A stretch of DNA of 64,000 bases from an uncultured Candidatus Saccharibacteria bacterium. Its GTDB lineage: Bacteria; Patescibacteriota; Minisyncoccia; UBA6257; 1-14-0-10-44-23. This document shows, one piece after another, positions 3,949 to 58,958 of the stretch (the stretch's first letter is position 1; each line of letters opens with the position of its first letter). Location: NCBI GenBank assembly GCA_964394435.1, contig CAYMXN010000001.1, forward strand, positions 235,928 through 299,927, read 5' to 3'. The notes under the pieces are model-generated. The model searched no databases, was not told the origin of the DNA, and saw only the letters and a program-made list of their open reading frames with translations. The translations under genes were made by a program, and so were the position numbers.

Positions 3949-5052
3949 ATGAAATTATCACATTCAGCCATTAGCCTGGCGGTACTCGGAAGCGTTTTAT
4001 TCGCCCCTATCTCGTCTGCCCTGGCCCAGGAAGCGATCACCCAAGGAACGGCCCGCCTTACCTTTACTACGCTAACTAAAGCGGGATTTCCTGAACAAGA
4101 CGTGTTTATCGGTGGACCGACGAGCGCCAATCCAAACACCCTAAATGAACAGGTAGTCCGCGTGTTTGGCGCTGATGCGAAAAACCCGGTTAACCTTGTT
4201 AAAACTATTTTCCGCAGCGAACAACCAGCGCCGCACGACTTAGCGCGCACGGGAGGTACTCCACTTGGGCCATTTGCACGCGGCAAAACACTCGATACCG
4301 CACTCCAGGCTTGGCTCAATGCGAAGGGCTCTGCCTCGTATACTATTCTCGGAGGTGGTTCTTCGCTCAATGCTGCGTTTGAAAACTTGATGCCGAACGC
4401 GCTTTATTCGCTTTGGTGCAACCGGTACACCGTCGGAGCTGCTGACTTTGTCGTCTCCCCTTGTCTACGCGGCGACGGATCGATGATTACCTTTACGACT
4501 GATCCAGGAGGAACTGCTACACTCTCGGCCTCATTTCCAACTGTAGCTCCGACTGGAAACTCAACGAAGTCTGTTTTTGCTTTGGTTTATCACAGCAATG
4601 GAAAAACCAATGGAAGCACTCCAGGCGAGTACGGCGTAACTGCGCACACCCACCTTATCGCCTTCTTGCCAACGAAGTCTGAAAATGCCGAGCAGCAGAA
4701 GTCGGACAGCGCACTCGCCCAAGCGGCGTGTATCGCCAACGCAGGAGAGGCGCGCGACTTAGCAATCTTAGAGACGTTTAAAAAGTACCACCTCGCACTC
4801 GAAGACGCCCTCCTCGCCCGTACTAAAGCTCTGAAGGCGGCGTGGAACATCACGACTAACACTGCCGAACGTAAGCTGGCGGTAAAAGCTGCGGCGAGCG
4901 CGTTTAATGACGCGGTGCGTAAGTCATGGAAAGATTTGAGTGAGAAGCGAAATGGAGCGTGGAAGACGTTCCGCTCTGAACAGAAAAAGTGTAATGCGGT
5001 TGAAAAATACGACAGCGAGTTTATCAACGAAGCATTTGACGCGAAGCTTTAA
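3949..5052 (+). CDS. Secreted hypothetical protein
   Basis: N-terminal signal peptide (MKLSHSAISLAVLGSVLFAPISSALAQEA). Followed by a strong terminator at 5057-5092. Confidence 0.7.
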   Translation: MKLSHSAISLAVLGSVLFAPISSALAQEAITQGTARLTFTTLTKAGFPEQDVFIGGPTSANPNTLNEQVVRVFGADAKNPVNLVKTIFRSEQPAPHDLARTGGTPLGPFARGKTLDTALQAWLNAKGSASYTILGGGSSLNAAFENLMPNALYSLWCNRYTVGAADFVVSPCLRGDGSMITFTTDPGGTATLSASFPTVAPTGNSTKSVFALVYHSNGKTNGSTPGEYGVTAHTHLIAFLPTKSENAEQQKSDSALAQAACIANAGEARDLAILETFKKYHLALEDALLARTKALKAAWNITTNTAERKLAVKAAASAFNDAVRKSWKDLSEKRNGAWKTFRSEQKKCNAVEKYDSEFINEAFDAKL

Positions 5053-5056
5053 CAAC

Positions 5057-5092
5057 AAAAAAACCGCTCTCATCTCGAGAGCGGTTTTTTTA
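5057..5092. terminator. Bidirectional intrinsic terminator
   Basis: aaaaaaaccgctctc-atctc-gagagcggttttttt; A-run and T-run flank an 8-bp GC stem between convergent genes. Confidence 0.8.
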
Positions 5093-7605: not shown

Positions 7606-7634
7606 TTGACATATATATGCTTATATGCTATAAT
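7606..7634 (+). promoter_or_regulatory. Consensus sigma70-type promoter with extended -10
   Basis: TTGACA (7606-7611), 17-nt spacer, TGcTATAAT (-10 at 7629-7634). The spacer contains the direct repeat tatatgc-t-tatatgc. Confidence 0.7.
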
Positions 7635-7749
7635 GTACCTTAGAAAGCTGGTAAGTGGGACGTTCCCCTTGCTTGAGCTTTAGATCTTTGAGAAGAACAA
7701 GTCTGTGCGCTAAGAACGCACATTACGAAAGAAAGGCTCGGTTACTCGA

Positions 7750-8691
7750 ATGACCATGCACCACGTTCGCGCCACGATCTGCTTCGTGTCCCCCGACAAC
7801 CAGTGGGGGTTCGCGGAGGTCGTCGACTCGGAGACGGGCGACAAGAAGACGTGGATGTGCCACCGTCTCGGCCGTCGCGACGCGTTCGCGACGCAGCAGG
7901 GTACGATCACCTACTCCGACGCGAAGATCGCGTTCGGTCCCTTCCCGCAGCACGGCGACGTCGTCGTCGTGCTGGCGGAGAGGGCTCCCCAGGAGGGCAA
8001 GCAGTACCCCCAGGCCGTGTGGACCACGGCCGAGCAGTACGACCCCTTCATCGAGATCGCCGCGGGCAACCGCGCCGCCTTCGCCGAGTACGCTCGTGAG
8101 CAGGAGCGGCTCGCCGCCAAGCGGGCGGAGCTCGAGCAGAAGCTCGCCACCCGGCGGGTGGAGCTCGAGCCCCAGGTCGGGCCGCTGCAGAAGCGGTTCG
8201 CGATCCAGGACCTGTCCCCCATCTTCAACCCCCTGAAGATGACCCGGGTCGTCGTCAAGGAGCTCGGCCGCGAGCAGATGCTCGCGGAGACCGAGGACGG
8301 CGTCAAGGTCGTCCTGCCCCTGAACGTCCAGCACCTCGTGGTGATCAACCCGCGCGGCCCGTCGATCACGGCGGCGCCGGCGGCGACGCCCCGGATGCTG
8401 GCGATCGGCGAGGTCGCGTACGTGCGCAGCGCGTACGTGAGCATCCTCGAGGAGGACGAGGACCTCGTCCTCAAGATCCAGGCGAACGCCTGGATCAGCC
8501 AGCTCCAGGCGGAGCGGGTGGTGATGACGGGCCTCACGAAGGCCCAGAACACCCTCGCCATGAAGGCGGTGGAGGCCGCGGACACCGAGCGTCAGCGGCA
8601 GGAGGCGATCGCGCGGTCGCACATCAAGGGGCCGAAGCTGTCGCCCCCGCCCAAGGGCGGCATGGCGAAGGCGCTCGCTCGCGGGCGCTAG
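7750..8691 (+). CDS. GC-rich hypothetical protein: N-terminal cold-shock/OB-like segment plus coiled coil
   Basis: 313 aa. ATICFVSPDNQWGFAEVVDSETGDKKTWMCH resembles the CSD pattern (GxVxWF..GFGFI...G.D.FVH). Central EQERLAAKRAELEQKLATRRVELE coiled coil. Sampled lines have 42-43/60 G+C. Has its own promoter and terminator. Confidence 0.7.
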   Translation: MTMHHVRATICFVSPDNQWGFAEVVDSETGDKKTWMCHRLGRRDAFATQQGTITYSDAKIAFGPFPQHGDVVVVLAERAPQEGKQYPQAVWTTAEQYDPFIEIAAGNRAAFAEYAREQERLAAKRAELEQKLATRRVELEPQVGPLQKRFAIQDLSPIFNPLKMTRVVVKELGREQMLAETEDGVKVVLPLNVQHLVVINPRGPSITAAPAATPRMLAIGEVAYVRSAYVSILEEDEDLVLKIQANAWISQLQAERVVMTGLTKAQNTLAMKAVEAADTERQRQEAIARSHIKGPKLSPPPKGGMAKALARGR

Positions 8692-8717
8692 CACGCACTA
8701 CCCCATCCTACGGGGTT

Positions 8718-8762
8718 GGCGCGGATGCAGATCGAAAGATCTTGTGTCCGCGCCTTTTTTAT
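8718..8762 (+). terminator. Intrinsic terminator of the GC-rich cassette
   Basis: ggcgcgga...tccgcgcc stem (inner gatc-gaaa-gatc) followed by ttttttt; abuts the stop of the convergent M23 gene. Confidence 0.75.
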
Positions 8763-9598
8763 TTAAACGCGCTTACAAATTTAAGCGGGTCGATTGAGAT
8801 GCCGTTTACCTTCAGCGAAAGGTGTAAGTGTGGTCCGGAAGCGTACCCGGTTTGCCCAACCGTTCCGATGATAGTTCCTTTTTTTACTTTCTGTCCTGGT
8901 CTTACACTCATCGAGTTCAAATGAAGATAGAGCGTCGCAATACCCTGTCCGTGATCGACGATAACCGAGTTGCCGTAAATCGAATCGAGATACGCTTTTT
9001 GTACTACCCCGTCGTTGATGACCGCCACTGGCGTACCAACTTTAGCAGTAAAGTCTACTCCGTAGTGATGAGTTACTTCGGTGCCAGTTTTGCGCGTCTC
9101 GCCATATGTACTGCCAATATTACGATTATCGTAAAGCGGCAGACCAAACCCACTCGTAAAATATATTTCCGGTGTTTTAGTTTCGAGATCTTTATTAATC
9201 TGGGTATTTGAGGTAGCTAAACTTTGCGTAAGCTGTTTTGGCGTAAGATTAAGCTTTTCTGGCACGGGAAGATTAATAACCGTAAATACTCCCGGGCGAA
9301 CGGTAAGTGTTTTTTCATACGTTGTCTGGTCTTCAAACGTAATGACTAGTTTGTGTGCTCCAGCCTTGGTCGCAAACGCGATTGGCACGAGCGCCCGATA
9401 CCCTCCTTGATACGCGAAGAGCGGAACTTCTTGGGCGTCATACATCACTTTGACTGGCTTTACCTCATTACTTATTTTGATTACGACAGTCTCTCCTTGG
9501 CGCGGGGTAAGTGTAGAAAAATTTGGCGCCGTAGCGTAAGCGTTTATTGCTAGGGCGAGTGCACATATCGAAATTATAAACGGGGATAATCGTCTCAT
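8759..9598 (-). CDS. M23 family (LytM-like) metallopeptidase
   Basis: HYGVDFTAKVGTPV and GPHLHLSLKVNG motifs, with an N-terminal signal peptide. Confidence 0.85.
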   Translation of the reverse strand: MRRLSPFIISICALALAINAYATAPNFSTLTPRQGETVVIKISNEVKPVKVMYDAQEVPLFAYQGGYRALVPIAFATKAGAHKLVITFEDQTTYEKTLTVRPGVFTVINLPVPEKLNLTPKQLTQSLATSNTQINKDLETKTPEIYFTSGFGLPLYDNRNIGSTYGETRKTGTEVTHHYGVDFTAKVGTPVAVINDGVVQKAYLDSIYGNSVIVDHGQGIATLYLHLNSMSVRPGQKVKKGTIIGTVGQTGYASGPHLHLSLKVNGISIDPLKFVSAFK

Positions 9599-19798: not shown

Positions 19799-19826
19799 TT
19801 GACAAATATAATAGGTATGCTATACT
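19799..19826 (+). promoter_or_regulatory. Promoter TTGACA-N16-TGcTATACT driving the orphan RNA
   Basis: -35 at 19799-19804, extended -10 TGC plus TATACT at 19818-19826. Confidence 0.65.
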
Positions 19827-19832
19827 AATTTT

Positions 19833-20064
19833 ATCCACGGGTGGGGAAACCAGCCCCGCGGACGCGCAAGCGGCGTTACGAAAATAACGTTGCGGGCGGC
19901 CACCTGGAGAAGTTAAGAAATCACTCTTGGGCTAACGGCCCACCCCGCTGGCACGGCGCGCAAGTGTCGTGCCAGCGGGCTCTACTCTAATTTAGGGGCA
20001 TCTACATCTAATATTCGCCCCGCCTAAAGGCCAGACTCTTCTCAGAGCTCTGGCCGCTTTTTTT
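19833..20064 (+). ncRNA. Orphan GC-rich structured RNA of unknown class (~230 nt)
   Basis: No ORF of 60 aa or more in any frame. Helices: 12-bp cccgctggcacg/cgtgccagcggg (19944-19979) capped by a GCAA tetraloop; gcggcgtta/taacgttgc (19870-19893) with G-U pairs valid only on the + strand; long-range gggtggg/cccaccc (19839-45 / 19939-45). Terminator hairpin 20029-20055 plus T-run. Confidence 0.6.
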
Positions 20065-20683
20065 ATTTAAACGCAATCAGATCAAGAAGCTGCTGGGCGG
20101 TCATCGGCGAGTCCTGGCCAAAACGAATCGAGAGTACTCGGTCGCCAAAACGATTTTGTAAGAAGTAGTGCGTACCACTCGCGCCACAGTTATAGAGCTC
20201 TCCAGTCGGGGTGACCTGAAGCTTGCGACATACTGGGTCTACGCACGGACCCTGGTTTGGGTCGCAAGTTTTTGAAGCAGTTTTTAATAACTTGCCTTCG
20301 ACATAATCAACTGTTTTTGCGTTAGCATTAATCCAGTCGGTTATATTCATAAGCGGATCCTTTTCGCTCACGATAAATCGATACGTGTATGGGTTGTCCC
20401 CTGTTTCAAGGGCCTGATTGATATACTCGCCGTCAATGACGAGGGTTTTTAGTGTACGCTCGTGAACTGAAAATCCATCTGGCAAATTAATCACGTAATC
20501 AGTTTCGCCAGACTTTGAAGGCGCAGAAACATTAATGCGTGAACCAGACGATGCGGTCGACGAAGCGTTCGTGTTGGTTGTTGTTTGCTGAATAGGCAGC
20601 GTACCGCTCGCACTTCCGAATATGAATCCGGCGATTGCAGCAACAACTAATATACCAATAAACGTATAATGACGTTTTTTCAT
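20063..20683 (-). CDS. Membrane-anchored/secreted hypothetical protein
   Basis: N-terminal TM/signal (YTFIGILVVAAIAGFIFGSASG) and a T/S/N-rich linker. Confidence 0.6.
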   Translation of the reverse strand: MKKRHYTFIGILVVAAIAGFIFGSASGTLPIQQTTTNTNASSTASSGSRINVSAPSKSGETDYVINLPDGFSVHERTLKTLVIDGEYINQALETGDNPYTYRFIVSEKDPLMNITDWINANAKTVDYVEGKLLKTASKTCDPNQGPCVDPVCRKLQVTPTGELYNCGASGTHYFLQNRFGDRVLSIRFGQDSPMTAQQLLDLIAFK

Positions 20684-43500: not shown

Positions 43501-43539
43501 ATAAAAAGAGCGGACGATGTATCTCTACATTGTCCGCTC
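43501..43539 (-). terminator. Strong intrinsic terminator after the Nudix-like gene
   Basis: gagcggac...gtccgctc long stem followed by tttttatt on the minus strand. A second hairpin lies at 43543-43566. Confidence 0.75.
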
Positions 43540-43570
43540 ATCGCCCGCCTGTTGGCGGACGGGTGCGAAA

Positions 43571-44263
43571 CTAGTGACCGAAGCGGTAACCGTAACCCTG
43601 TGCACGCGCCCGATGGGCCGCCAACATCACCTCTACAAACGTGTGGCTCATGTCGTACGACCACTCTCCCTCGATCGGGAGCGTATCGAGAGAGTACCAC
43701 TCGAGGCCACTCGCCTCGGCCTGGTTGTCTCCGCTCTTCACCCCGAACACGACCTGCTGGTCGTGCGTACCCGCGTACGTCACGATGTGGGTCGAGGCGT
43801 AGCTGTGCTTGCCCGGGTCGTGGGAGAATCCGTTGCGATTACGACCGTCCATCTGAGGCGCGTACTGGCGCATACAGACCGGATGGGCCCAACCGAGCGG
43901 CAGCTCGACGTCGATGCCGAGATCGCTCTTGTAGTGGAACTTCAAGGCGTCCTCGATGGACTGGTAAAGTCCGACCACGCCGCCGACGATGGCGAGCTTG
44001 CCAGGAAAGCGCCCCGTCCGACGACGGATGACACCGCCGAGCAACTGACCCGTCTTCGGGTCCTGCTTGACGATGACGCCGTCGACACAGGGCACGGCAC
44101 CGAGCTTCGTACGCAAGGGCCAGACCGCTCCCGAGACCCGCCCGTCCGGCTGGACGAGCTGATCGAGATCCGAACGCTGGGCGAGGATCTCGGCGAGTTG
44201 CCGAGTGCTGTAGCCCACCAGCCGATCCGCAAGGTCGGCAGTCGAATCAGTCCTTTCGGACAT
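43571..44263 (-). CDS. GC-rich Nudix-fold, DUF4916-like protein (degenerate Nudix box)
   Basis: Trimmed to MSERTDSTADL (GGAGG SD 6 nt upstream). AVPCVDGVIV...GKLAIVGGVVGLYQSIEDALKFHYKSDLGI follows the Nudix strand-loop-helix layout without the full GX5EX7REUXEEXGU box. 42/60 G+C at 43981-44040. Confidence 0.65.
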   Translation of the reverse strand: MSERTDSTADLADRLVGYSTRQLAEILAQRSDLDQLVQPDGRVSGAVWPLRTKLGAVPCVDGVIVKQDPKTGQLLGGVIRRRTGRFPGKLAIVGGVVGLYQSIEDALKFHYKSDLGIDVELPLGWAHPVCMRQYAPQMDGRNRNGFSHDPGKHSYASTHIVTYAGTHDQQVVFGVKSGDNQAEASGLEWYSLDTLPIEGEWSYDMSHTFVEVMLAAHRARAQGYGYRFGH

Positions 44264-44314
44264 CGGAAACCTCCGGGAAATACCCTCCGCAACCGATTGT
44301 TGTGGATTAGATAT

Positions 44315-44343
44315 GTTATAGCATAAAATATGCCCAAAGTCAA
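44315..44343 (-). promoter_or_regulatory. Promoter TTGACT-N17-TGcTATAAC with GCATA-TTT-TATGC palindrome in the spacer
   Basis: Minus strand reads gaTTGACTttggGCATAtttTATGCTATAACatat. Confidence 0.65.
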
Positions 44344-44396
44344 TCACCTGCTGTTGCGCCCACAAATCAAAAGCCCGCCAGCTGGCGGACTTTTGA

Positions 44397-46631
44397 TTAC
44401 TTCGTGCTTACTCCCAAGGCTTCAAAGACTGGCATAAATTGAGCGGCGTTCGGATTGCCTAGGAAGAAGTCTGGGACGTGAGCTAAGAACTGCCGTAGGT
44501 ATGTAGCTGCTTCAGCATTTTGGCCAGTAAAAGCCAGTACGACACCGAGCTTGAGCTCGGACTCGTAATCAGCTTCGTTGTACTTGAGTGCGAGACGATA
44601 TAACCTCGCCGCTTCTTCATAATTCTCTGCGTCACCATAATACCCGGCAACAATACGAGCCTCTGGTGCAGTGTTTGGGTTGCGCCCCCTGCTCTTTGCT
44701 AGTTCGATCTCTTCAAATCCTTTTTTCTGATCGCCAACTTCAAATGAAAGCAACCCATAGAAAAAGTGCGGGTCAGCAGCTACCGGATCAAGGTCGATAG
44801 CGTTTTGCATTTCTTTGAGCGCCGCTTTTTTATCTCCCTGGAGCAAGCGAAGCTTTGAGAGCATATAATACGTCTGCTGACGATTGGATGAGATACTTAT
44901 CGCCTTACGAATATTTTCCTCGATCAACTTGAAATACTTTTTATCGAGGTTTTGAAAAATCATTCCGGCATCGGCGCGTACAATGTACAGATAGTAGTTA
45001 TTCGGATCAGCCTGGATAGCCTTATCAAACTGCGCGAGTGCGTAGTCAACAACTGCTATCGTATTTGAAATTTCCTGCTGCTGCACCATCTGCGACAACG
45101 CACTTACCATGCTCTGACTGATCTCGTGCTGATATGGCTCGTTGAGTGCGATTCCTTTTTTATACGACTCGATCGCCTTATCTGGCATTCGATTTACGAA
45201 ATAGTTCAGCCCCCAGAACTGGAGGTGGTTTGCATATACAATTCTACTATTCACTACTACTCCGATGAGCAACCCGGCAACCACTACGCCTACTACGCAG
45301 CCGCCAAAGACCTTCTTTGTTGTAGTAAACGAACCTACCTCGCTGGTTGCACGATGCCGATCTGGAACATACTGGTCGACAAGCGCAATAAACACAATGA
45401 GCATCAAGTACGAGCCAAACGCATCAAAGACGAAAAAGTTTTGAGCGAGATAAGCGACTAGGGCGCCGAGTGCGAATGGGCGGAGCTCCAGAGGCGCGAA
45501 GCGAATAATCGTTCGGATAAGCAAGCCAATAAGTAGTACGTAGGCGAGAAAACCGACTACGCCACTTGTCGCTAAAATCTCAAGATATACGTTGTGCGGC
45601 TTATCCCAGTACGTTTCAGCAAAGCCAGTACGAAGCAAAACTGGGTTATAACGCTGATCAAATGGGTATTTAAAGTTTTCCCAACCATATCCCAGTAGTG
45701 GCTTTGTTTTAATAATATCGATTGCGGTTTTCCAGGCGATTAAACGGTTACCGACGGTCGCATCAAAACTTGAGATTTGAGCTAAGCGATTGAGCCCTGG
45801 GACCTTTTGCCATACAGCTGCGCTGCGGGTAGCAAAAAATACTCCACCAAAAATTATCATCGCGACAATACCGAGTAGCGGGATGTTTTTTACTATTGAT
45901 GTGCGCACTGTAAATGGCTTGAGCTTACGAAGAGCAACATACCCAAGCGTACTCATTGCGCCCAATGTCAAACCAACCAAAGCACCACGCGTCTGTCCGA
46001 GTAAGATAACAACGGCTAGGGTTGCGATGCCAAACCATAGCCAAACTCTTACCCCTTTTCGCTGGGTCGTACGAGCAAGCCAAGCTCCAATAAACATATT
46101 AAACATAAGATATGGAGCTAAAAATGCTGGGTTGCCCATAAAACTACCTGGGCGTTGAGCATCACTCCCCTCAAACACCGTTGGTGCGATTTTTTGGATG
46201 ATCGCAAAAAAGCCAACGATAAAGGCTAAGCCAAATAGATAGCTCATAAATGAGCGCCAGTTAATACGGCGACGCATCGCGACTAATACCAAGAAGTATG
46301 CGTAAAAGTGTAGGAGTGAGAAAATACCAATCGCGCGCTCTTGAATTGACCAAAAACTTCGATGCAAATTAACTCCCGTCAAACTAGCGAGCGCGAGCAT
46401 CCCCAAAAATAAACCTAGGGCGAGTACTAACTTACTTGCCCGAGGACGGTACTCTTTGCGAAATACTGCGAGCCCAATCCAAGCAGCTACTGTTAGCTCA
46501 ACTAAAATATGAAAGCCAAATACCTTTAAGGTTACGAGTGGATAAATGAGGTTATTAATATAGAGCAAAATGGCGAGCGGGCAGATATACAATCCCCAGC
46601 GCACGATTTTCGATAATACGTCTGTGTTCAT
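44397..46631 (-). CDS. O-antigen ligase (Wzy_C)-like polytopic membrane protein with C-terminal TPR repeats
   Basis: 744 aa: about 12 TM helices in the first ~450 aa, then repeated TPR-like helices (AIESYKKGIALNEP..., AIQADPNNYY..., ALKEMQNAIDLDP...). Confidence 0.75.
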   Translation of the reverse strand: MNTDVLSKIVRWGLYICPLAILLYINNLIYPLVTLKVFGFHILVELTVAAWIGLAVFRKEYRPRASKLVLALGLFLGMLALASLTGVNLHRSFWSIQERAIGIFSLLHFYAYFLVLVAMRRRINWRSFMSYLFGLAFIVGFFAIIQKIAPTVFEGSDAQRPGSFMGNPAFLAPYLMFNMFIGAWLARTTQRKGVRVWLWFGIATLAVVILLGQTRGALVGLTLGAMSTLGYVALRKLKPFTVRTSIVKNIPLLGIVAMIIFGGVFFATRSAAVWQKVPGLNRLAQISSFDATVGNRLIAWKTAIDIIKTKPLLGYGWENFKYPFDQRYNPVLLRTGFAETYWDKPHNVYLEILATSGVVGFLAYVLLIGLLIRTIIRFAPLELRPFALGALVAYLAQNFFVFDAFGSYLMLIVFIALVDQYVPDRHRATSEVGSFTTTKKVFGGCVVGVVVAGLLIGVVVNSRIVYANHLQFWGLNYFVNRMPDKAIESYKKGIALNEPYQHEISQSMVSALSQMVQQQEISNTIAVVDYALAQFDKAIQADPNNYYLYIVRADAGMIFQNLDKKYFKLIEENIRKAISISSNRQQTYYMLSKLRLLQGDKKAALKEMQNAIDLDPVAADPHFFYGLLSFEVGDQKKGFEEIELAKSRGRNPNTAPEARIVAGYYGDAENYEEAARLYRLALKYNEADYESELKLGVVLAFTGQNAEAATYLRQFLAHVPDFFLGNPNAAQFMPVFEALGVSTK

Positions 46632-46764: not shown

Positions 46765-49700
46765 CTATTCGTAGCTGACGTTGGCGATGGTGAACGGAAC
46801 AACCGTTGACTCGATCGAGATGTTGCTCGTCGTGCCATCGTTGAACGTGATACCCGAGGCAGCGTTGATAAGCGCTGAGAGGGAGTCAGAGGTGTTGGAA
46901 CCGTTGTAGAAGCTTGAGGAGTTCACACGAACCTTAGCAGCCTTCGTGGTGCCTGGGTCAACTGTGTATGACGGGTTAAACGTCACAGAACAGGAGTTAC
47001 CAGCACCTGGAGTGCAAGTCTGTTGAGCTGCACTGCCGAGAGCTGAGTTGGTGTTGGCGTCAAGAAGGTCAACCGTGAAAGCGGTCGAACCGTTGCTGAC
47101 AGCCTGACCAGAGAACTTGACCGTTACAGTACCAACTACAGCCTGGTAGGCCGAGTCAGCCGTAAAGTTCAAGGTTGCAAGGTCGTCAACCGCTACACGA
47201 GTACGGCCAGTGGATGAACCAAGGACCGCGCTTGAGAGCGAGAGCTTCGTGCGGTAAACCGTGACAGTGTTACCTGAAGCAGAACCAGACTTCGTAGCAG
47301 ACGTGTTCGAGTCCTTACCATACGCCGTAACGAAGTACGTCGGCTGGGAGAGACCGAATGCGTGGGTGCTGTTTGAAGTGGCACCACCAGAGCTGTACGT
47401 CGCAACATCACCCTTTACCACGAGGTTAACCGTACCGTTTTTCGGAACGATAACTGGGTTGAGGCTGAAGGTCGCCGTAGCAACTGAACTGCCAGACATC
47501 GTCATCGAGATAGGACCAGCTACCTGAGTAGAGCCGTTCCAGAGCGTTACGTTCTGGAATGAAGCGATACCAGCTGAACCGTTACCTACCGTGTCGGTGA
47601 GCGAGATGTCGGTTACGCGGATGTCCTCAACGTTGTCCGCGGTAAGGCGGATCGTTAAGAGGGCGTTGCCGGTTGAACCCATTACTACGTACTTAGAAGG
47701 CGCCGTGTCGGAGCCAGTAGCGACCGTAAGGGTTGGACCAGACGAGATTACGATACTCTGACCGTTAACTGCACCTGGGAAGGTAATCGCCGAGTTCGAG
47801 ATCGAACCCAAAGCGCTCCAACCGATGATGTCGATAACTGCAGAGTGAGTCGCAGCCGTCGAGCTGGTCAAGATGTCGGCGTAAACGTCAATCGTTACTG
47901 AACCACCCTGTGGAACAGTGACTGGGGTCGCAGCGCTGAACGCGAGCGAGGTTTCCGCATCACTGATCGTTGGGCGGGTCGTTCCGAACTGAGTCGAACC
48001 GATCATAACCTTCATGTTCTGCATGTCGAAGTTCGCGTTGCTGTCCTTGTCAAAGGTAAGCGACGAAAGGGTCGCACCCTGGGCTGAAGAAGCAGTTACG
48101 ATGAACGAAGCGACACGAGCGTTGTTGCTACCAGCGATAAACGTTGGTGAGTTAAACGCTGAGTTTACAGCAACCGTGAGCGGAGTCGTCGTAACAGCGA
48201 GCGTCGCGCCGGTTACAGAACCGGATGAAGCTGACTGGAACGAGGTCTGACCCTCAAGGTTTGTGCTGTTACCTGGCAAGCTGCCCTGGAGCGTCGTGAC
48301 GTCAGCACCCGAGAGGATGTCAACGACGAGCGAGACTACACGGACAGTGTTGGCCGGAACAATGTAGTTAATTGGGGATCCGGACGTACCGAAGTGGCAA
48401 GTAATCGAGCCGGAAGCGAGCGTACACTGACCGGAGGAAGAACCACCAGCAACAGTGTTGATCGCGTTACCAACCTGACCACCTACGTCATCGATAAGGC
48501 GGATGTTTTGGATGTCGTCCGTCGGAGCAGTAGCCCAGTTAGTACCGGAACCAACCTGCGAGATGGTCGCATCTAAGAACTTAACTTTAACTGCCTCACC
48601 AGCTGCATAAATGCGAGCGCGGAGAAGAGTTACGCCAGAGGCACCTACTGGAATTGGAGCAGTTGGGGTGTCTGAAGCGAGAGATACCGTGATCGAACCG
48701 GTGTTGATCGTAATCGTTGTCTGGTTCGTTGAGGTGATGGAGACCGTGATACCAGTGTTGTACTGGGTGTCGATCGCCGTGACCTTAAACGGCTGGAGCA
48801 ATGAGAACGTCAAAGTGCGGTTAGGGCTGCCGTTGATGTCAGCGAAAAGCTGAATCGTCGAGTTACCCGTGTTGAGCACGATACCCTCTGGGAAGTTGAA
48901 GTTGGTGTTCGTCGCGCCAGCTGCGAGAGTCGCAACCTGCGTGCCGTTAACCAAAAGCCTCAAATTCTGAACATCGCCTGGGTTAGCTGAACCGACCATG
49001 CTGAACTGCATGTTGGTGAGCTTGACCTTGCTGTTAGAAACGTTCGCAGTCCAAGATGAAACGAGGACCGAGGCCGTACCAGCATCAACTGTTGAACCTA
49101 CCGCGTTAGCAGTAAGAGTCATCGTTGAAAGTGATGGGTTGGAAACTGAAGTGACAGTCAAGGAAGCGGTGGAAACTGGAAGACCAGTAACCGTCGCACC
49201 CGTCGCCGTTACACCCTTAAGCTGCCAAGCGAGCGTGTTGCCAGCTGAAGCAGATGAAGAGAGGTCAAGGCGGAGCTCACCAGTCCAAGTCTGACCAGCT
49301 GGGATCATCAAGTTGAGACCCGAGAAGGTTGCGACTGAGTTGGTGAGTGACTGGAACTGAGCAACAACTTCACCGGTCGCCGCGTTGGCGAGGTAAAGGT
49401 TGTTGATGTTGCTGTCAGATACGACACCAACCTTGTTGAATGTAAGGCCAGTAACCGTTACTGCAGCGCCAGCTGGAGCGGTGAAAGCGAAGCGGCCAGC
49501 GTTGATCTGACCAGCTCCGGCGATTGCCGAGCCAATTGGGTTGTTACCAGCGAGGGTAACGTTAAGAGTGGAACCGGCTGGGAGTGAAACGCCCGTGCCA
49601 GTACCAGTGCCAGTGTTCACAGAGCCAGTGAAGGCTGCGCGAGACTTTGCACCGAAGTAACCAGAAGCTGGGGTGATGCCAGCAGAAGTCTGCCAGGCCA

Positions 49701-50034
49701 TAACCGCCGCCTTGGTGATGCTACCGAAGTAGCCCGTTGGGGAAACACTGAAGTGACCCTTTGACGCAAGAACCTGCTGGAGGCAAGTAACATCAGCGCC
49801 CTTTGAGCCCACGGTGAGGTCGCGGGTGAAGGAACATGCTGAGTTGCCGCCAGTCGAGTTGTTGAGCTGGGACTGCAGGTTAGCCAACGTTGCGAGCAAC
49901 GCGTTGATCTGAGTCTGGATGTCTGAAGCTGATTGCGCACCGGCAACCGCTACAAATGAACCAAAACCAGAGAGCGTAGCCGCAGTGGTTACCGTCAGGA
50001 TTACTGAGGCAACCTTGTTGCTAAATTTACTCAT
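46765..50034 (-). CDS. Large cell-surface protein: signal/anchor, PG_binding_1-like domain, long Thr/Ser/Ala/Gly/Val-rich beta-repeat region
   Basis: 1089 aa. LTVGSKGADVTCLQQVLASKGHFSVSPTGYFGSITKAAVMAWQ is a peptidoglycan-binding repeat, followed by a TGTGTGTG linker and repetitive T/S-rich segments. Confidence 0.8.
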   Translation of the reverse strand: MSKFSNKVASVILTVTTAATLSGFGSFVAVAGAQSASDIQTQINALLATLANLQSQLNNSTGGNSACSFTRDLTVGSKGADVTCLQQVLASKGHFSVSPTGYFGSITKAAVMAWQTSAGITPASGYFGAKSRAAFTGSVNTGTGTGTGVSLPAGSTLNVTLAGNNPIGSAIAGAGQINAGRFAFTAPAGAAVTVTGLTFNKVGVVSDSNINNLYLANAATGEVVAQFQSLTNSVATFSGLNLMIPAGQTWTGELRLDLSSSASAGNTLAWQLKGVTATGATVTGLPVSTASLTVTSVSNPSLSTMTLTANAVGSTVDAGTASVLVSSWTANVSNSKVKLTNMQFSMVGSANPGDVQNLRLLVNGTQVATLAAGATNTNFNFPEGIVLNTGNSTIQLFADINGSPNRTLTFSLLQPFKVTAIDTQYNTGITVSITSTNQTTITINTGSITVSLASDTPTAPIPVGASGVTLLRARIYAAGEAVKVKFLDATISQVGSGTNWATAPTDDIQNIRLIDDVGGQVGNAINTVAGGSSSGQCTLASGSITCHFGTSGSPINYIVPANTVRVVSLVVDILSGADVTTLQGSLPGNSTNLEGQTSFQSASSGSVTGATLAVTTTPLTVAVNSAFNSPTFIAGSNNARVASFIVTASSAQGATLSSLTFDKDSNANFDMQNMKVMIGSTQFGTTRPTISDAETSLAFSAATPVTVPQGGSVTIDVYADILTSSTAATHSAVIDIIGWSALGSISNSAITFPGAVNGQSIVISSGPTLTVATGSDTAPSKYVVMGSTGNALLTIRLTADNVEDIRVTDISLTDTVGNGSAGIASFQNVTLWNGSTQVAGPISMTMSGSSVATATFSLNPVIVPKNGTVNLVVKGDVATYSSGGATSNSTHAFGLSQPTYFVTAYGKDSNTSATKSGSASGNTVTVYRTKLSLSSAVLGSSTGRTRVAVDDLATLNFTADSAYQAVVGTVTVKFSGQAVSNGSTAFTVDLLDANTNSALGSAAQQTCTPGAGNSCSVTFNPSYTVDPGTTKAAKVRVNSSSFYNGSNTSDSLSALINAASGITFNDGTTSNISIESTVVPFTIANVSYE

Positions 50035-54574: not shown

Positions 54575-55804
54575 TTAGTACCCTTCGAGCATCGTCGACT
54601 TAAGGTGACCACGGATACGGAGCAAGGCTTTCGCCTCGATCTGACGAATACGCTCACGCGTAACACCAAACTCCTTACCTACCTCTTCAAGGGTGTGTGT
54701 AACTCCATCCTCCAACCCAAAACGCATCTGTAAAATCTTTTGCTCGCGCGGCGTTAAATCAATCAAAATTTCACGAATTTTTTCACGCAAGAGCGCCTGG
54801 CTGGCAACTTGAGCCGGCGTCAAACTCTTATCATCTTTAATAAACTCGGAAAGCGTCGAGTCATCGTCTGAATCACCAACTGGCGACTCGAGGCTGACCA
54901 CGTCCTGACTAATTTTCTGGATGTAGTGAATCTTATCGATTGGCATATCCATCTCACCGGCGATCTCTTCAACGAGTGGGTCGCGGCCAAGCTCTTGAGT
55001 TAATCGGCGCTTAACCTGCGTGTATTTACTGATTGTTTCCACCATGTGTACTGGAATACGAATCGTACGGCTCTGGTCGGCCAGTGCGCGGGTAATAGCC
55101 TGACGAATCCACCAGGTGGCGTAGGTTGAGAACTTAAAACCACGGCGATAATCAAACTTATCAACAGCGCGCGAGAGACCCATATTACCCTCCTGAATCA
55201 AGTCGAGAATCGAGAGGTTGGAGCTGCGGTTTACGTAGCGCTTAGCGATAGAAACGACTAAACGCAAGTTGGCGCTAATAAACTTTTGACGAGCAACTTC
55301 GTCGCCCTTTTCGATACGCTTAGCGAGCTCTTTCTCTTCAAATGACTTTAAAAGCGACGCCTTACCAATTTCTTTGAGATACATCTGTACCGAGTCCGGG
55401 AGGTTGTCCTCGTAATTAATCTCGGTAGCACGCTGGAGCTCTTTCTCGGTAATCTCCTCTTTGTCGCGCGGAACATCAATTAACTGACTCGTTTCAATAA
55501 CTTTAATACTCGACTCGTCGAGCTTGCGATAGATTTCGTCTAAAAAGGTCACATCTTCCTCAATGCGCGGGAAGTAGTGAAGCACCTCGGTATCAGTAAC
55601 ATAACCACGGTCCTTGCCGCGATCGATAAGATCGCCTAACTGTTGGAGGTTAATTTCTTCTCGCTTTTTAGCTTTTGCAGTCTTAGCTGATGCCGCCTTA
55701 CGGGCACTCTTTTTCAGAACAGTCTTTTTCGGCTTGGCGGACTTAGAACGTTTTGCAGCTTGAGCAGATTTTGCTTTTACCGCTTTCTTTTTTGGCATAG
55801 TCAA
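54575..55804 (-). CDS. rpoD: RNA polymerase sigma factor RpoD with Lys/Ala-rich N-terminal extension
   Basis: Region 2-4 motifs: [59 protein letters not shown]. Confidence 0.95.
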
Positions 55805-55933
55805 ACCAGTATTAATTATAACCCAGATTTCCCTGACAAAAAAATAAGACTATCAATGTGCCAATCCCTATCACTTTTCTCGTATAATGACGCTTCAAAC
55901 GCCTTTATATTGACACAAATAGCCTACTGTTGA

Positions 55934-55961
55934 AGTATATGGTATTTTTGCGATTTGTCAA
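55934..55961 (-). promoter_or_regulatory. Putative rpoD promoter TTGACA-N16-TATACT
   Basis: Read on the minus strand about 125 nt upstream of the rpoD start. Confidence 0.5.
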
Positions 55962-56142
55962 TGTAGCCGCCTGCCTACCTAATAAGAGTAAATGACCACT
56001 AACTCAATGCTCCAGGCTATCTGAAATGCTGAGTTAGTTGCAGGAGAAGAGGTTTGAATTCTTCTCCTGCGATGCTTGAGGCGAACTCGTACGTTCGCCT
56101 CGACCTGTTGCGCGGGGTACGACCCGCTGTCTCGAGTCTCGC

Positions 56143-56976
56143 CTACGAGGCGAGACCCTTCTTCACCGCGGCGAGGACCACCTCGCCGTCGATTCCGCTG
56201 GCACCCCAGTAGGCGGGCTGTCCCGCCTTGCCGAGGCCTGCGCCACCCGACCAGCCACCCAAGTGCTCCTTCAAGCTGGCACAGAGCGCGCCGTCCCCGT
56301 AGAAGTTCACCTCCCCGTCCTTCGAGAGGATGAGGAGCTGGTCGACGGCCCCGTAGAGGCGGTCAGCGACCGCTGAGGTCTTCGAGTGGTCCATGCGGAC
56401 CACCGTCAGACGTCCGTCCACCTCCTTCGCGCCGATGGCGCGGAGGGCCTCTGTCTCGTGCGCGGGGGTCACCCCCTGCGCCGCACGGTCTAGCGCACGA
56501 ATGCGCTCGACCTCGGCGTCAGATGCCCCGAGCGCCCGCATCGCAGGGACGTACCCCGCGTCGTTGGCACCTACGAGCTCGATCCAGCGACGAGTCTGCT
56601 CGCTGGTCGGCATCTTAATCAGTGCCAAAACCTGCTGCACCGCCGGGGGACGGTGCGACTGGTCGCCGTGATGGTCGACGACCACCACCTCAGTCTGCTC
56701 CGGCCACTCCTTGGTCGGCGAGCACTCGACGAAGATGACGCATTCGATGCCGGCACACCGCGTCGACTTACGGTTGTGCTGCCAGAAGTCTGGTCCGGTC
56801 TGGACCAGGATCTCCTCGACCGTGAGGCCAAGGTCGCCTGCGGCGGCGTAGACATGCGACCCCCAGCCCTTGTTGGGCTGGACCCACTTCTCACCCGCGA
56901 GGGTGAGGAGAGAGCGAACGACCTCCATTTCGAGGTCGTTCCCGCCGAGTACGAACAAACGGTTGGCCTTACCCAT
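56143..56976 (-). CDS. GC-rich DHH-family-like phosphoesterase (divergent motifs)
   Basis: Trimmed to MGKANRLFVLGGNDLEME (GGAG SD). Motif spacing fits DHH proteins: NDLE at residues ~13-16 (DxD-like), VECS at ~83-86, VVVVDHHGD at 97-105, C-terminal GGWSGGAG (GGGH-like). 45/60 G+C at 56461-56520. Confidence 0.6.
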   Translation of the reverse strand: MGKANRLFVLGGNDLEMEVVRSLLTLAGEKWVQPNKGWGSHVYAAAGDLGLTVEEILVQTGPDFWQHNRKSTRCAGIECVIFVECSPTKEWPEQTEVVVVDHHGDQSHRPPAVQQVLALIKMPTSEQTRRWIELVGANDAGYVPAMRALGASDAEVERIRALDRAAQGVTPAHETEALRAIGAKEVDGRLTVVRMDHSKTSAVADRLYGAVDQLLILSKDGEVNFYGDGALCASLKEHLGGWSGGAGLGKAGQPAYWGASGIDGEVVLAAVKKGLAS

Positions 56977-57174
56977 CGAAATCTCCAGTTGGTCCGGAAG
57001 GACCGTGAATCCACTTCGGGCGTTTCCGCTCAGGTAGGACGACACCTCTGGATAAGCACTTTATTTTACAACCCGGCTTGGAAGGTTGTCCGCTCTGCGA
57101 GCAGCGTTTTAGGCGCAAATACGCTCAAAACACTGCTCACGAACGGTCTATTTCAATGAACGACTTAGATATTT

Positions 57175-57203
57175 AATATAGCATATTTTTATGCTTTTGT
57201 CAA
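57175..57203 (-). promoter_or_regulatory. Promoter TTGACA-N17-TGcTATATT with GCATA-AAAA-TATGC palindrome in the spacer
   Basis: Minus strand reads gaTTGACAaaaGCATAaaaaTATGCTATATTaaat. Leaves a leader of about 190 nt before the DHH-like ATG. Confidence 0.65.
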
Positions 57204-57224
57204 TCTATCTCTTTTTGTTCCTTC

Positions 57225-58958
57225 CTACCCCTTTCTGCTCAATTGTTGATACTCCTGGATGAGTTTTTCGAGCAGTTGATGGTCCCCGGCACGTTCGGCG
57301 GCAGCCATCTGCCCCTGAATCTCCTGACGCCTCTGTTTTGCCCCCTCCTGGCGTAGTCCACGTACAATATCTTCAAACTCCTTCTTTACCTTTTTCGGGT
57401 CGTCGCTTACCACCAAACTCGCGTGCATCTGAAGCAGGCCAACTCGCGCGGCATCTTCTTGCGATAACTGCGCAACCTGCCCACCCTCGATATATGCATA
57501 TATCGCCTGATAGGTTTCCGGAATATACTCTCGCACTCCCTTTGATTCGATTAGTAATCCGGCTGTGTCATTTAAGAGCATCTCTAACAAACGCTCGACG
57601 AGAATGTCTTTACGCGTTGTTGGCTCGGGAATATCTACGTTGCCGTTTACCTCTTTAGGCGCACTACTACCTGCGAGATCGAGCTTGATCTGACTCATTT
57701 CAGCTATCAACGTCTGCTCGGCGATGCCGCTCATACGAGCAAGCTGGTGGAGCCAGTGGTTTTGTTCTACTGGACTACTCACCTGCTTAATTTTGCCAAG
57801 CGCCTGTCGTACCGCTTTTTTCTTACTTGCTATGTCAGTCGCCCGACCGATGCCGTAGAAGTTGAAGTAATACTCCATTGCGGGCACCGATCTTTCAATT
57901 AACTCTTTCATATGCCCCGGTCGAGACTTAGCGATATCGGCCGGATCTTTAAGATTCGGGTCGTCAAAGATAACTACTTTGACATTAAAGTCATTGGCTT
58001 GCGCCAGGTCGATTGTACGCTCGGCTGCCGCCTTGCCCGCGTTGTCGTTATCAAAAGAGAGCACGAGATTCTCCGCAAACCGGCGAATGGTCTTAAGGTG
58101 GTCGGCGGTAAGCGCGGTGCCGGAGGTGGCGACGAGATTTTTCACGCCATCCTGATAGGTGGCGATAAAATCCATCTGCCCCTCAACTAATACCGCGGTG
58201 TTGGCGTCGCGAATGTCATTTTTTGTTTTCCAAAAGCCAAATAGGAGGCGCGACTTGTTAAAAATAGGCGTTTCTGGACTGTTTACGTACTTTCCGATAT
58301 CCGCGCTCTCGTTGCCCGGCATAACACGCCCCGTAAAACCGATCACTTTCCCGAAGTGATTGTGGAGCGGAAACATAATTCGGTTGCGGAACCGGTCCAT
58401 ATACATTCCCCGCTCGGTTTTAAAGATTAACCCAGCTCGCTCAATATCGGCGGTCGCGTACCCGAGTTTTGTTACGTGGCGAAGTAGCGCGTCCATACCT
58501 GGACCCGCCATACCAATCTCAAACTCTTCAATCGTCTTCTCGGTTAGGCCGCGGCCGGTGAGATACGCTTTTGCTGGACGCCCCATATCCTCGGCGAGCG
58601 TCTGCTTGTAAAAATCTTTTGCGATTCGATTGAGCTCGTACAAGACGTCATACTTTTTCTGATCTTGGTTACCGTGCGTCTTAAGCTCAACCCCTGCTTT
58701 GTCAGCTAAAATTTTGAGTGCGTCTAAAAACTCGATGTTTTCATAACGCATCGTAAATCCGATTACATCTCCCCCGAGCCCACACCCAAAGCAGTGCCAG
58801 ATGCCACGGTCGGGCGAGACCATGAATGATGGGGATTTCTCTTTGTGAAATGGGCAAATTCCCTTCAGGTTTTTCCCTGCTGGTGCGAGCGCGACATACT
58901 GCTTAATAAATTCAGCGATGTCGATTTTTTCTTTGATGAGATCGGTGGTTTCGGCCAT
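57225..58958 (-). CDS. dnaG: DNA primase DnaG
   Basis: Zinc ribbon CPFHKEKSPSFMVSPDRGIWHCFGCG; TOPRIM LVEGQMDFIA...SFDNDNAGKAAA. Confidence 0.95.
   Translation of the reverse strand: MAETTDLIKEKIDIAEFIKQYVALAPAGKNLKGICPFHKEKSPSFMVSPDRGIWHCFGCGLGGDVIGFTMRYENIEFLDALKILADKAGVELKTHGNQDQKKYDVLYELNRIAKDFYKQTLAEDMGRPAKAYLTGRGLTEKTIEEFEIGMAGPGMDALLRHVTKLGYATADIERAGLIFKTERGMYMDRFRNRIMFPLHNHFGKVIGFTGRVMPGNESADIGKYVNSPETPIFNKSRLLFGFWKTKNDIRDANTAVLVEGQMDFIATYQDGVKNLVATSGTALTADHLKTIRRFAENLVLSFDNDNAGKAAAERTIDLAQANDFNVKVVIFDDPNLKDPADIAKSRPGHMKELIERSVPAMEYYFNFYGIGRATDIASKKKAVRQALGKIKQVSSPVEQNHWLHQLARMSGIAEQTLIAEMSQIKLDLAGSSAPKEVNGNVDIPEPTTRKDILVERLLEMLLNDTAGLLIESKGVREYIPETYQAIYAYIEGGQVAQLSQEDAARVGLLQMHASLVVSDDPKKVKKEFEDIVRGLRQEGAKQRRQEIQGQMAAAERAGDHQLLEKLIQEYQQLSRKG

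Follow-up and report, generated by a model that had tools for sequence, protein, structure and literature searches.

Why does a short G+C-rich gene lie between dnaG and rpoD in a genome some of whose relatives keep these two genes side by side? The question is raised by a 64,000-nucleotide (nt) stretch of contig CAYMXN010000001.1 from an uncultured Candidatus Saccharibacteria bacterium, referred to here as the window; these 64 kb are the part of the host genome that was examined. On the minus strand, dnaG (57225-58958) and rpoD (54575-55804) flank an open reading frame (ORF) for 277 amino acids (aa; 56143-56976), and these coordinates bear out a preliminary description of the DNA in which a segment was said to split the two genes. 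The ORF belongs to a 1.2-kb minus-strand unit at approximately 57203-56040, hereafter the cassette. As a whole, the segment is best explained as an autonomous one-gene unit for a stand-alone, CRISPR-free phosphodiesterase of the NrN family, a reading in which we place moderate confidence. Its whole transcription unit, i.e., leader, coding sequence, and trailer, is dense in hairpins. This property was absent from the preliminary description; it is the most interesting element of the locus. Runs such as SRR13076512 and SRR14271331 contain an identical copy of the locus.

The identity of the protein was established through specific profiles and structure. No family in Pfam-A, including DHH (PF01368) and DHHA1 (PF02272), or in NCBIfam matched the 277-aa protein at an E value of 10 or less, and PHROGs yielded no match to it. 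Two PADLOC models recognized it, C3a116 (PDLC01071; E value of 7.6e-47) and DHH_CorA (PDLC01149, "DHH family hydrolase, CorA associated"; E value of 4.6e-31). When solved structures were searched with phmmer, NrN (9LQ9, 9LQA, and 9LQC) was the sole real sequence match, with an E value of 3.4e-19 for 9LQ9. An AlphaFold2 (AF2) model, built from 45 homologs, reached a pLDDT of 96 and a pTM of 0.89. Used as a Foldseek query, it returned 9LQA, 9LQ9, 9LQB, and 9LQC as the top four hits (E values of 9e-20 to 6e-18; TM scores of 0.66 to 0.76), followed by DhhP, GdpP, a RecJ-like protein, PAP phosphatase, and PggH (E values of 1e-7 to 1e-4). The DHH relationship suspected in the preliminary description is therefore visible to PADLOC, to the NrN entries of the Protein Data Bank (PDB), and to AF2 with Foldseek, but not to Pfam or NCBIfam; it is detectable only via NrN-specific profiles and fold. 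The accompanying suggestion of a novel subfamily was too strong, because NrN is a described family whose Bacteroides fragilis member has been characterized and solved. NrN is a DHH phosphodiesterase that degrades SAM-AMP, the sole known activity of the family (PMC10600005). Type III-B CRISPR loci encode it beside CorA or as a fusion with CorA; the B. fragilis member is that of Chi et al. 2023 (PMC10600005). The ORF and its catalytic codons are located as follows.

56143-56976, minus strand: ORF of 834 nt (277 aa) for an NrN-family phosphodiesterase of DHH/DHHA1 fold, with its ATG at 56976
56929-56946, minus strand: motif I codons G11-G12-N13-D14-L15-E16; E16 equals E21 of NrN, which is mutated in PDB 9LQA (entry title)
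56725-56727, minus strand: codon of the motif II acidic residue E84, an invariant column
56668-56676, minus strand: DHH motif codons D101-H102-H103, equal to D85-H86-H87 of NrN
56560-56565, minus strand: codons N138-D139; D139 equals D119 of NrN, which is mutated in PDB 9LQC (entry title)

The motifs N13-D14-L15-E16, E84 (in VECS), D101-H102-H103, and W242-G245 lie exactly where the DHH-family motifs had been quoted before, and they fall on conserved columns of the family. Throughout the 45-sequence family alignment, G11, G12, D14, E16, E84, D101, H102, H103, N138, D139, W242, and G244 are invariant, and G245 is conserved to at least 90%. NrN cleaves neither pApA nor cA2-6, and its D85A/H86A/H87A variant is inactive (PMC10600005). 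The protein thus belongs to the NrN family, with the catalytic constellation D14/E16, E84, D101-H103, and D139 intact. Since these residues align with those of NrN and are invariant, the enzyme is very probably active.

Its place within the family was evaluated from 87 homologs found among 5.8 billion proteins and from 177 fetched loci (given L numbers), nearly all of which carry a homolog; L175 to L177 came from a primase search. Type III genes (Cas10, Cas7, and Cmr1 profiles) occur at 54 loci, and several homologs are NrN-CorA fusions. The cas-linked proteins group together in one large clade of a neighbor-joining tree. The window protein is found in a separate group of clades without cas genes, the named records of which are Staskawiczbacteria, Peribacteria, Kaiserbacteria, Daviesbacteria, Falkowbacteria, Saccharibacteria, and Parcubacteria, i.e., Patescibacteria. 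Neither Cas10, Cas7, Cmr1, nor CorA was detected in the 64-kb window, and type III cas genes were found at none of the loci of the Patescibacteria clades. By its position in the tree, the protein sits in an uncharacterized, CRISPR-independent branch of the NrN family that is typical of Patescibacteria. A large CRISPR-free branch, comprising Patescibacteria and some gut Alphaproteobacteria, would imply that SAM-AMP-like nucleotides exist outside CRISPR or that the family has other substrates. The alphaproteobacterial members form a cas-free clade in low-G+C gut species (L024 to L046) and display neither G+C nor hairpin excess; at eight of the fetched alphaproteobacterial loci, a 700-aa KH-domain protein accompanies the NrN-like gene. 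An origin of the cassette in phage was rejected, as no relatives were found in 2.9 million viral contigs (IMG/VR) and the neighbors of the homolog in one relative, L008, had no PHROG matches.

The window contains three G+C-rich islands of about 1 kb with one ORF each (7701-8900, 43501-44400, and the NrN cassette). The occurrence of three such islands behind promoters of the same style prompted a structure test of coding sequences. Codons that specify the same amino acid were exchanged within each gene, and native and shuffled versions were compared by their mean folding energy in 150-nt windows. The resulting synonymous-shuffle z scores are listed below.

NrN-like gene of the window: -6.0
NrN-like gene of L007, a related genome: -4.5
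12 other Patescibacteria copies of the NrN-like gene (12 of 12): -3.4 to -12.9
8 cas-linked homologs (G+C of 0.41 to 0.74): +1.2 to -1.9
7 cas-free alphaproteobacterial homologs: +0.25 to -2.6
18 other genes of the window: median of -0.96, minimum of -4.15
First G+C-rich island of the window (island A): -5.6
Second G+C-rich island of the window (island B): -2.65
HrpA-like helicase genes near NrN-like genes (all five, Patescibacteria): -4.7 to -13.5
TrmB-like genes near NrN-like genes: +0.6 to -2.1

All 14 Patescibacteria copies of the NrN-like gene fold far better than their synonymous shuffles, whereas the cas-linked homologs, including ones at 72 to 74% G+C, and the host genes show no such excess. 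The hairpin density rests on the arrangement of synonymous positions and is specific to the Patescibacteria copies of the gene. Counting hairpins of at least six stacked pairs gave 14 in the coding sequence of the window versus 5.1 +/- 1.7 in shuffles, and none of the 100 shuffles reached 14. Dinucleotide shuffles of the same coding sequence yielded z scores of -6.4 for the sense and -7.1 for the antisense strand, compared with +0.5 for rpoD. The fold excess is limited to positions 57200 to approximately 55950. When the 64 kb were scanned in 900-nt blocks, structure was strongest in the three islands and in a portion of one large ORF. What is conserved is the hairpin-dense property; most of the specific stems are not.

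The second deviation of the locus is its composition. The ORF has a G+C content of 66.4%, with values of 0.70, 0.46, and 0.84 at the first, second, and third codon positions (GC1, GC2, and GC3), respectively; GC3 of dnaG, rpoD, and alaS is 0.51 to 0.57. In 300-nt windows the G+C content of the cassette peaks at 0.69, compared with a mean of 0.48 for the 64-kb window. A G+C-rich ORF of about 834 nt had been described correctly, although the 66 to 69% observed is slightly under the 70 to 75% that had been claimed. The remaining elements that delimit the unit and its downstream neighbor are the following.

57175-57203, minus strand: near-consensus sigma-70 promoter of the cassette, 11 of 12 matches, with TG extension
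56040-56157, minus strand: 3' trailer, which contains three hairpins and closes the G+C-rich structured segment
55934-55961, minus strand: separate near-consensus promoter of rpoD, TTGACA-16-TATACT, resembling the cassette promoter

The dnaG stop codon lies 22 nt before the cassette promoter, which consists of a -35 hexamer TTGACA (57203-57198), a 17-nt spacer with TG at 57183-57182, and a -10 hexamer TATATT (57180-57175). It aligns with the L007 promoter TGGACA-17-TATGTT. Altogether, the dnaG-rpoD region contains four promoter-like sites, whereas 0.6 would be expected. As rpoD has its own near-consensus promoter, its expression is independent of read-through. The cassette promoter is also similar to those that precede rpoD in relatives whose dnaG-rpoD site is empty. 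Given this likeness and the resemblance to the rpoD promoter of the window, it may be a captured host rpoD promoter instead of cargo. Of the earlier claim that the gene carries its own near-consensus promoter, the site at 57203-57175 with its 11 of 12 matches stands; it need not be the gene's own, because the empty-site promoters look alike. Translation is assigned to the ATG at 56976, preceded by the Shine-Dalgarno (SD) sequence GGAG at 56983-56986. An upstream GTG start at 57045, which would give a 300-aa ORF, was rejected because L007 carries a 2-nt indel and a stop codon there. At the 3' end, one trailer hairpin extends across the stop codon (56157-56134), and the two others occupy 56101-56078 (9 bp) and 56070-56040 (a perfect 11-bp stem). 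All three lack a subsequent T-run, and no canonical terminator was found 3' of the cassette. Fold z scores of the trailer were -5.2 and -5.7, dropping to approximately 0 beyond 56000.

Occupancy of the dnaG-rpoD gap varies among relatives. The closest DnaG relatives are only about 61% identical. Three related loci, L175, L176, and L177 (DnaG 58 to 62% identical), exhibit the order dnaG-rpoD-unknown-alaS without an NrN-like gene, with dnaG-rpoD gaps of 174, 129, and 97 nt, respectively. The L006/L007 lineage (identity to the window of 56% for DnaG, 79 to 82% for RpoD, and 60 to 66% for AlaS) carries an NrN-like gene, 67% identical, at the identical site. Beyond these two lineages, none of the fetched loci has such a gene between dnaG and rpoD. 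The expectation that dnaG and rpoD are normally adjacent is thus borne out by three relatives, the interruption being confined to the window and L006/L007; the gene is not a feature of all relatives but a lineage-specific occupant of the gap. The identities of DnaG, RpoD, and AlaS do not settle the sister relations of the five related genomes, so that single and repeated insertion are not separable. A single entry of the unit into the gap, in a common ancestor of the L007 and window lineages, is probable, or else a later exchange between the two. One insertion followed by losses is possible, as is an exchange between the window and L007 lineages. A repeat of 31 nt at the boundaries was considered as an insertion scar and rejected, since it merely reflects the likeness of two consensus promoters. 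Related primases of about 980 aa (P0132, P0135, P0141, and P0143) contain intein/LAGLIDADG domains (PF14528 and PF14890), which makes dnaG of this group itself a target of selfish insertions.

The alternative that survives best, although we consider it unlikely, is a recently acquired foreign cassette, either from a high-G+C donor or circulating in Patescibacteria, whose G+C content would be that of the donor and whose hairpins and leader would have traveled along. Its atypical composition and its patchy presence at the dnaG-rpoD site are in line with such an acquisition. So are its boundaries: the window and L007 sequences are alike from the -35 hexamer on, with similarity declining shortly past the stop codon, the 3' ends of dnaG fail to align, and the trailers share a mean column identity of 63% with long gaps. 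The same applies to synonymous sites. At fourfold-degenerate sites in identical residues, the two cassettes agree in 61% of cases versus 39% expected (z of 4.7), while the flanks are saturated (observed and expected agreement of 20% and 28% for dnaG, 33% and 28% for alaS, and 42% and 34% for rpoD). Two explanations fit this excess, namely that the cassette copies diverged after their hosts or that the synonymous sites are constrained. However, no integrase or transposase ORFs were found, nor target-site duplication, terminal repeats, or a flanking tRNA, the nearest tRNA being 3.7 kb away. Furthermore, there is no relative in the viral contigs, and the closest homologs all belong to Patescibacteria, not to high-G+C phyla. 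Native high-G+C homologs are not hairpin dense, so donor composition alone does not yield the observed sequence. GC3 is equally high in the two copies (0.84 in the window and 0.87 in L007), which are only 67% identical in protein. The NrN-like gene exceeds its flanks in G+C by 0.09 to 0.24 in dozens of low-G+C hosts, an excess that also speaks for an acquired cassette. Taken together, the high GC3 of both copies, the G+C excess in low-G+C hosts, and the hairpin-free high-G+C homologs favor a G+C excess that may be coupled to hairpin density and not to recent foreign origin.

Upstream of the ORF, the cassette specifies a structured leader, the elements of which are listed below.

56977-57168, minus strand: 5' leader of about 190 nt, a multihelix RNA whose start was placed from the -10 hexamer
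57151-57158 with 56974-56981, minus strand: helix P1, 5' arm CAUUGAAA paired with UUUCGAUG, closing the whole leader and including the AUG (56974-56976)
57091-57145, minus strand: hairpin P2 (helix 2), 24 pairs, several of them G-U, with the core gagcagtgtttt/aaaacgctgctc
57068-57089, minus strand: hairpin P3 (helix 3), ACAACCU/GGGUUGU with an 8-nt loop
57048-57052 with 56984-56988, minus strand: helix P4 (helix 4), 5' arm UCCAG paired with CUGGA, overlapping the SD GGAG (56983-56986)
56991-57004, minus strand: hairpin GGUCC-UUCC-GGACC (helix 7), just 5' of the SD

The leader folded with a z score of -5.3 against dinucleotide shuffles, none of which was as good, and that of L007 with -5.6. The consensus of the two comprises seven helices, with three small hairpins inside P4. 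All three helices named in the preliminary description (57145-57091, 57089-57068, and 57004-56991) are present. Between the window and L007, six pairs are changed on both sides. A covariance model built from these two sequences identified one further lineage, L033 with its near-twin L073 (30 bits; E value of 7.5e-6), where the match lies directly upstream of a homolog with only 35% protein identity; the P2 core sequence also recurs there. The covariation that had been proposed as a check on homologous leaders is found, with compensatory changes, in three lineages only: in an alignment of three sequences that was fitted to the model, 99.4% of the cells are paired and 25 of the 56 pairs are changed on both sides, compared with 38 to 41% paired cells and one to four double changes in slid controls. 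Helices P1 and P2 contribute 5 of 8 and 7 of 24 such pairs, respectively. No T-run follows P2.

Searches of the 177 loci with nhmmer and two covariance models (R1 and R2) revealed no leader copies beyond the window, L007/L095, and L033/L073. No Rfam family accounts for the leader: Rfam 15 in E-value mode gave chance-level matches only for 55700-57400, which includes leader, trailer, and coding sequence, and gathering mode detected only tRNAs in the whole window. Other Patescibacteria copies have different leaders, often one long hairpin. In structure, the homolog leaders surpass the upstream regions of control genes only to a moderate degree, with a median z score of -4.3 and 25 of 40 homolog leaders below -3 versus a median of -1.9 and 16 of 45 control genes. 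The idea that long leader hairpins are a special feature was weakened accordingly, because structure is also frequent upstream of control genes. We regard the leader as a lineage-restricted, conserved, structured RNA. Riboswitch- or attenuator-type control, which the length of the leader had suggested, is no more than a possibility for it. The leader adds a small new candidate cis-regulatory RNA that is linked to a nucleotide phosphodiesterase.

How might such a unit work? As an autonomous gene for a CRISPR-free NrN-type enzyme, it would produce a phosphodiesterase that hydrolyzes the 3'-5' phosphodiester bond in a small adenylated nucleotide, be it a linear dinucleotide or one similar to SAM-AMP. 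In this way, the enzyme would dispose of a signaling or stray nucleotide, with neither Cas10 nor CorA as a cognate partner. Helices P1 and P4 enclose the AUG and the SD, respectively, in both the minimum-free-energy and the consensus folds, and they could damp translation until some trigger opens them. The G+C excess would be largely a by-product of hairpin density, because stable stems need G or C at third positions, and would carry no fresh imprint of a high-G+C donor. When the transcript is poorly translated, the hairpins along it might extend its lifetime or shield it from Rho or from RNases that attack single strands; alternatively, they might reflect a single-stranded nucleic-acid stage.

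Several observations weigh against this proposal or parts of it. The one NrN that has been characterized takes as its substrate the SAM-AMP produced by a Cas10. As no Cas10 is present here, the physiological role is a guess. Only 4 of the 14 hairpins are co-located between the window and L007 (null expectation, 2.1 +/- 1.3; not significant), and pair retention is about what the nucleotide identity of 71% predicts. As individual stems are not significantly conserved, the excess could come from a mutational or recombinational process and not from selection, and with both strands folding equally well, an RNA-level reading is unproven. Fourfold-site identity above chance next to saturated flanks fits a transfer later than the split of the hosts, which reopens the question of foreign origin. 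Occlusion of the SD and AUG is only moderately predicted, with an unpaired probability (positions -17 to +3) of 0.27 in the window and 0.18 in L007. As a general property it was rejected, because 40 homologous leaders had a median of 0.41 versus 0.44 for controls (P = 0.18).

Two other functions were weighed for the enzyme. One, which we hold to be improbable, is anti-defense or signal quenching in the manner of viral ring nucleases and the phage SAM-AMP lyase, by which a SAM-AMP-type alarm nucleotide would be destroyed and the cell or a mobile element shielded from a CorA-type effector. SAM-AMP hydrolysis being the sole activity known in the family (PMC10600005), and phage SAM-AMP lyases having been proposed as anti-CRISPRs (PMC12255297), such a role is conceivable; the protein also evolves fast relative to its synonymous sites, and all neighbor genes in L008 are of unknown function. 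Nevertheless, those neighbors lack PHROG matches, no homologs occur on the 2.9 million viral contigs, both producer (Cas10) and effector (CorA) are absent from the window, the Patescibacteria loci have no cas context, and the position between two essential genes has been kept in two lineages. The other, a housekeeping nanoRNase or pAp phosphatase that recycles short oligonucleotides in a reduced genome as an NrnA/Orn analogue, is very improbable in spite of the NrnA-like fold neighbors after NrN (DhhP, GdpP, PggH, and PAP phosphatase), the strong promoter, and the housekeeping gene block around it, because the gene is missing from three close relatives with identical gene order (L175 to L177) and hence not essential, its distribution across the tree is patchy, and B. 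fragilis NrN does not cleave pApA (PMC10600005).

At several Patescibacteria loci, an HrpA-like DEAH helicase gene is located within about 1 kb of the NrN-like gene, at the positions given here.

Downstream of the NrN-like gene: L022, 8081-11200; L035, 7842-11117; L081, 7495-8076
Upstream of the NrN-like gene: L056, 2434-5586; L085, 2831-5863

The helicase gene is likewise elevated in G+C over its flanks in L022 and L035. The upstream region of the L022 helicase gene, the only one examined, had a z score of about -10. A TrmB-like helix-turn-helix regulator of ordinary composition recurs up to approximately 3 kb upstream of the NrN-like gene and is adjacent and divergent in L018. Both the regulator and the helicase are absent from the window. 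In L012, a Peribacteria relative, a stretch at approximately 5000-5080, just upstream of the NrN-like gene, looks tRNA-like by eye only.

Elsewhere in the window, the two other islands and one further unit share features with the cassette.

7606-8760, plus strand: island A, a 313-aa ORF at 7750-8691 between a leader of some 110 nt and a terminator (hairpin plus T-run); G+C up to 0.71
43520-44343, minus strand: island B, an ORF of about 231 aa at 43571-44266 with a short leader and a hairpin plus T-run terminator
19799-20066, plus strand: candidate small RNA, promoter TTGACA-16-TATACT with TG, then about 230 nt at a G+C content of 0.60 and a hairpin plus T-run end

The promoter of island A (7606-7634) is a perfect TTGACA-17-TATAAT with TG extension, and that of island B (44343-44315) is TTGACT-17-TATAAC with TG extension and 10 of 12 matches. 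Neither protein matched Pfam or PADLOC, and only two homologs of the island A protein were found among the 5.8 billion proteins. The coding sequence of island A forms 13 hairpins versus 6.0 +/- 1.9 in shuffles. The small-RNA candidate has a fold z score of -5.7, no ORF of at least 50 aa, and no Rfam family. At least 11 of 12 promoter matches are attained at only six sites in the 64 kb; three of these, which also carry TG, precede G+C-rich structured units, i.e., island A, the small-RNA candidate, and the NrN cassette. The large ORF picked up by the structure scan (46765-50034, minus strand; 1,089 aa) encodes a peptidoglycan-binding domain. Its part at approximately 48600-49900, with a G+C content of 0.55 to 0.58, is among the most structured blocks, and its first 900 nt gave a synonymous-shuffle z score of -4.15.

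A wider interpretation of these units is tentative, and we think it doubtful as a whole. Patescibacteria might hold a class of genes, comprising the NrN-like gene, the HrpA-like helicase, island A, and, weakly, island B, whose synonymous positions give dense hairpins over the whole unit and thereby raise G+C. Their transcripts would persist against RNases or Rho, perhaps as recovery or antidote messages that outlast the decay of bulk RNA, and the G+C islands would represent RNA-structure selection and not recent transfer. If the hairpin result generalizes, compositional islands in genomes of candidate phyla should not be taken for horizontal transfer by default, and there would be a set of protein-coding genes under strong nucleic-acid-structure selection along their full length. 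Such full-length selection on coding genes is otherwise familiar mainly from RNA viruses.

Among known systems, NrN of B. fragilis (9LQ9, 9LQA, 9LQB, and 9LQC) is the closest to the window protein. They share the fold, the catalytic residues, the match to both NrN-type PADLOC models, and about 25% identity over the full length (260 versus 277 aa). However, the window gene has no Cas10, Cmr, or CorA nearby and belongs to clades that are never cas-linked, in the clade closest to it some 30 residues are inserted between motifs I and II, and the window gene is equipped with a strong promoter, a long structured leader, and a hairpin-dense coding sequence. The DHH/DHHA1 phosphodiesterases and nanoRNases (GdpP, PggH, DhhP, NrnA, and RecJ-like proteins) have the two-domain fold and the DHH metal-binding motif in common with it. 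They differ in motif I, which is GGxDxE in the window protein and not DxD, in motif II (E instead of D), and in DHHA1, where GGGH is replaced by GWxGG. Stand-alone messenger degraders, i.e., the ring nucleases Crn1 to Crn3 and AcrIII-1 and the phage SAM-AMP lyase AcrIIIB4 (PMC12255297), are also single-gene units without a producer nearby, whereas the window enzyme has another fold, is not found on viral contigs, and is chromosomal between essential genes.

The leader resembles riboswitches and other leaders that sequester the ribosome-binding site in its length, its multihelix junction, its closing helices with SD and AUG, and its compensatory changes. In contrast to riboswitches, it belongs to no Rfam family, its motif is shared by three lineages only, and its long 24-bp hairpin is of a kind seen more often at RNase III or protein-binding sites than in aptamers. 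With horizontally acquired genomic islands, the cassette shares deviant composition and presence or absence among relatives, but it lacks mobility signatures. Phage "morons" and similar elements are autonomous promoter-gene-terminator insertions with deviant composition. Like them, the cassette is a one-gene unit with deviant G+C content and a promoter, placed between genes that are adjacent in relatives; it differs in having no canonical terminator, in residing in a bacterial chromosome and not a prophage, and in a composition that is coupled to hairpin density.

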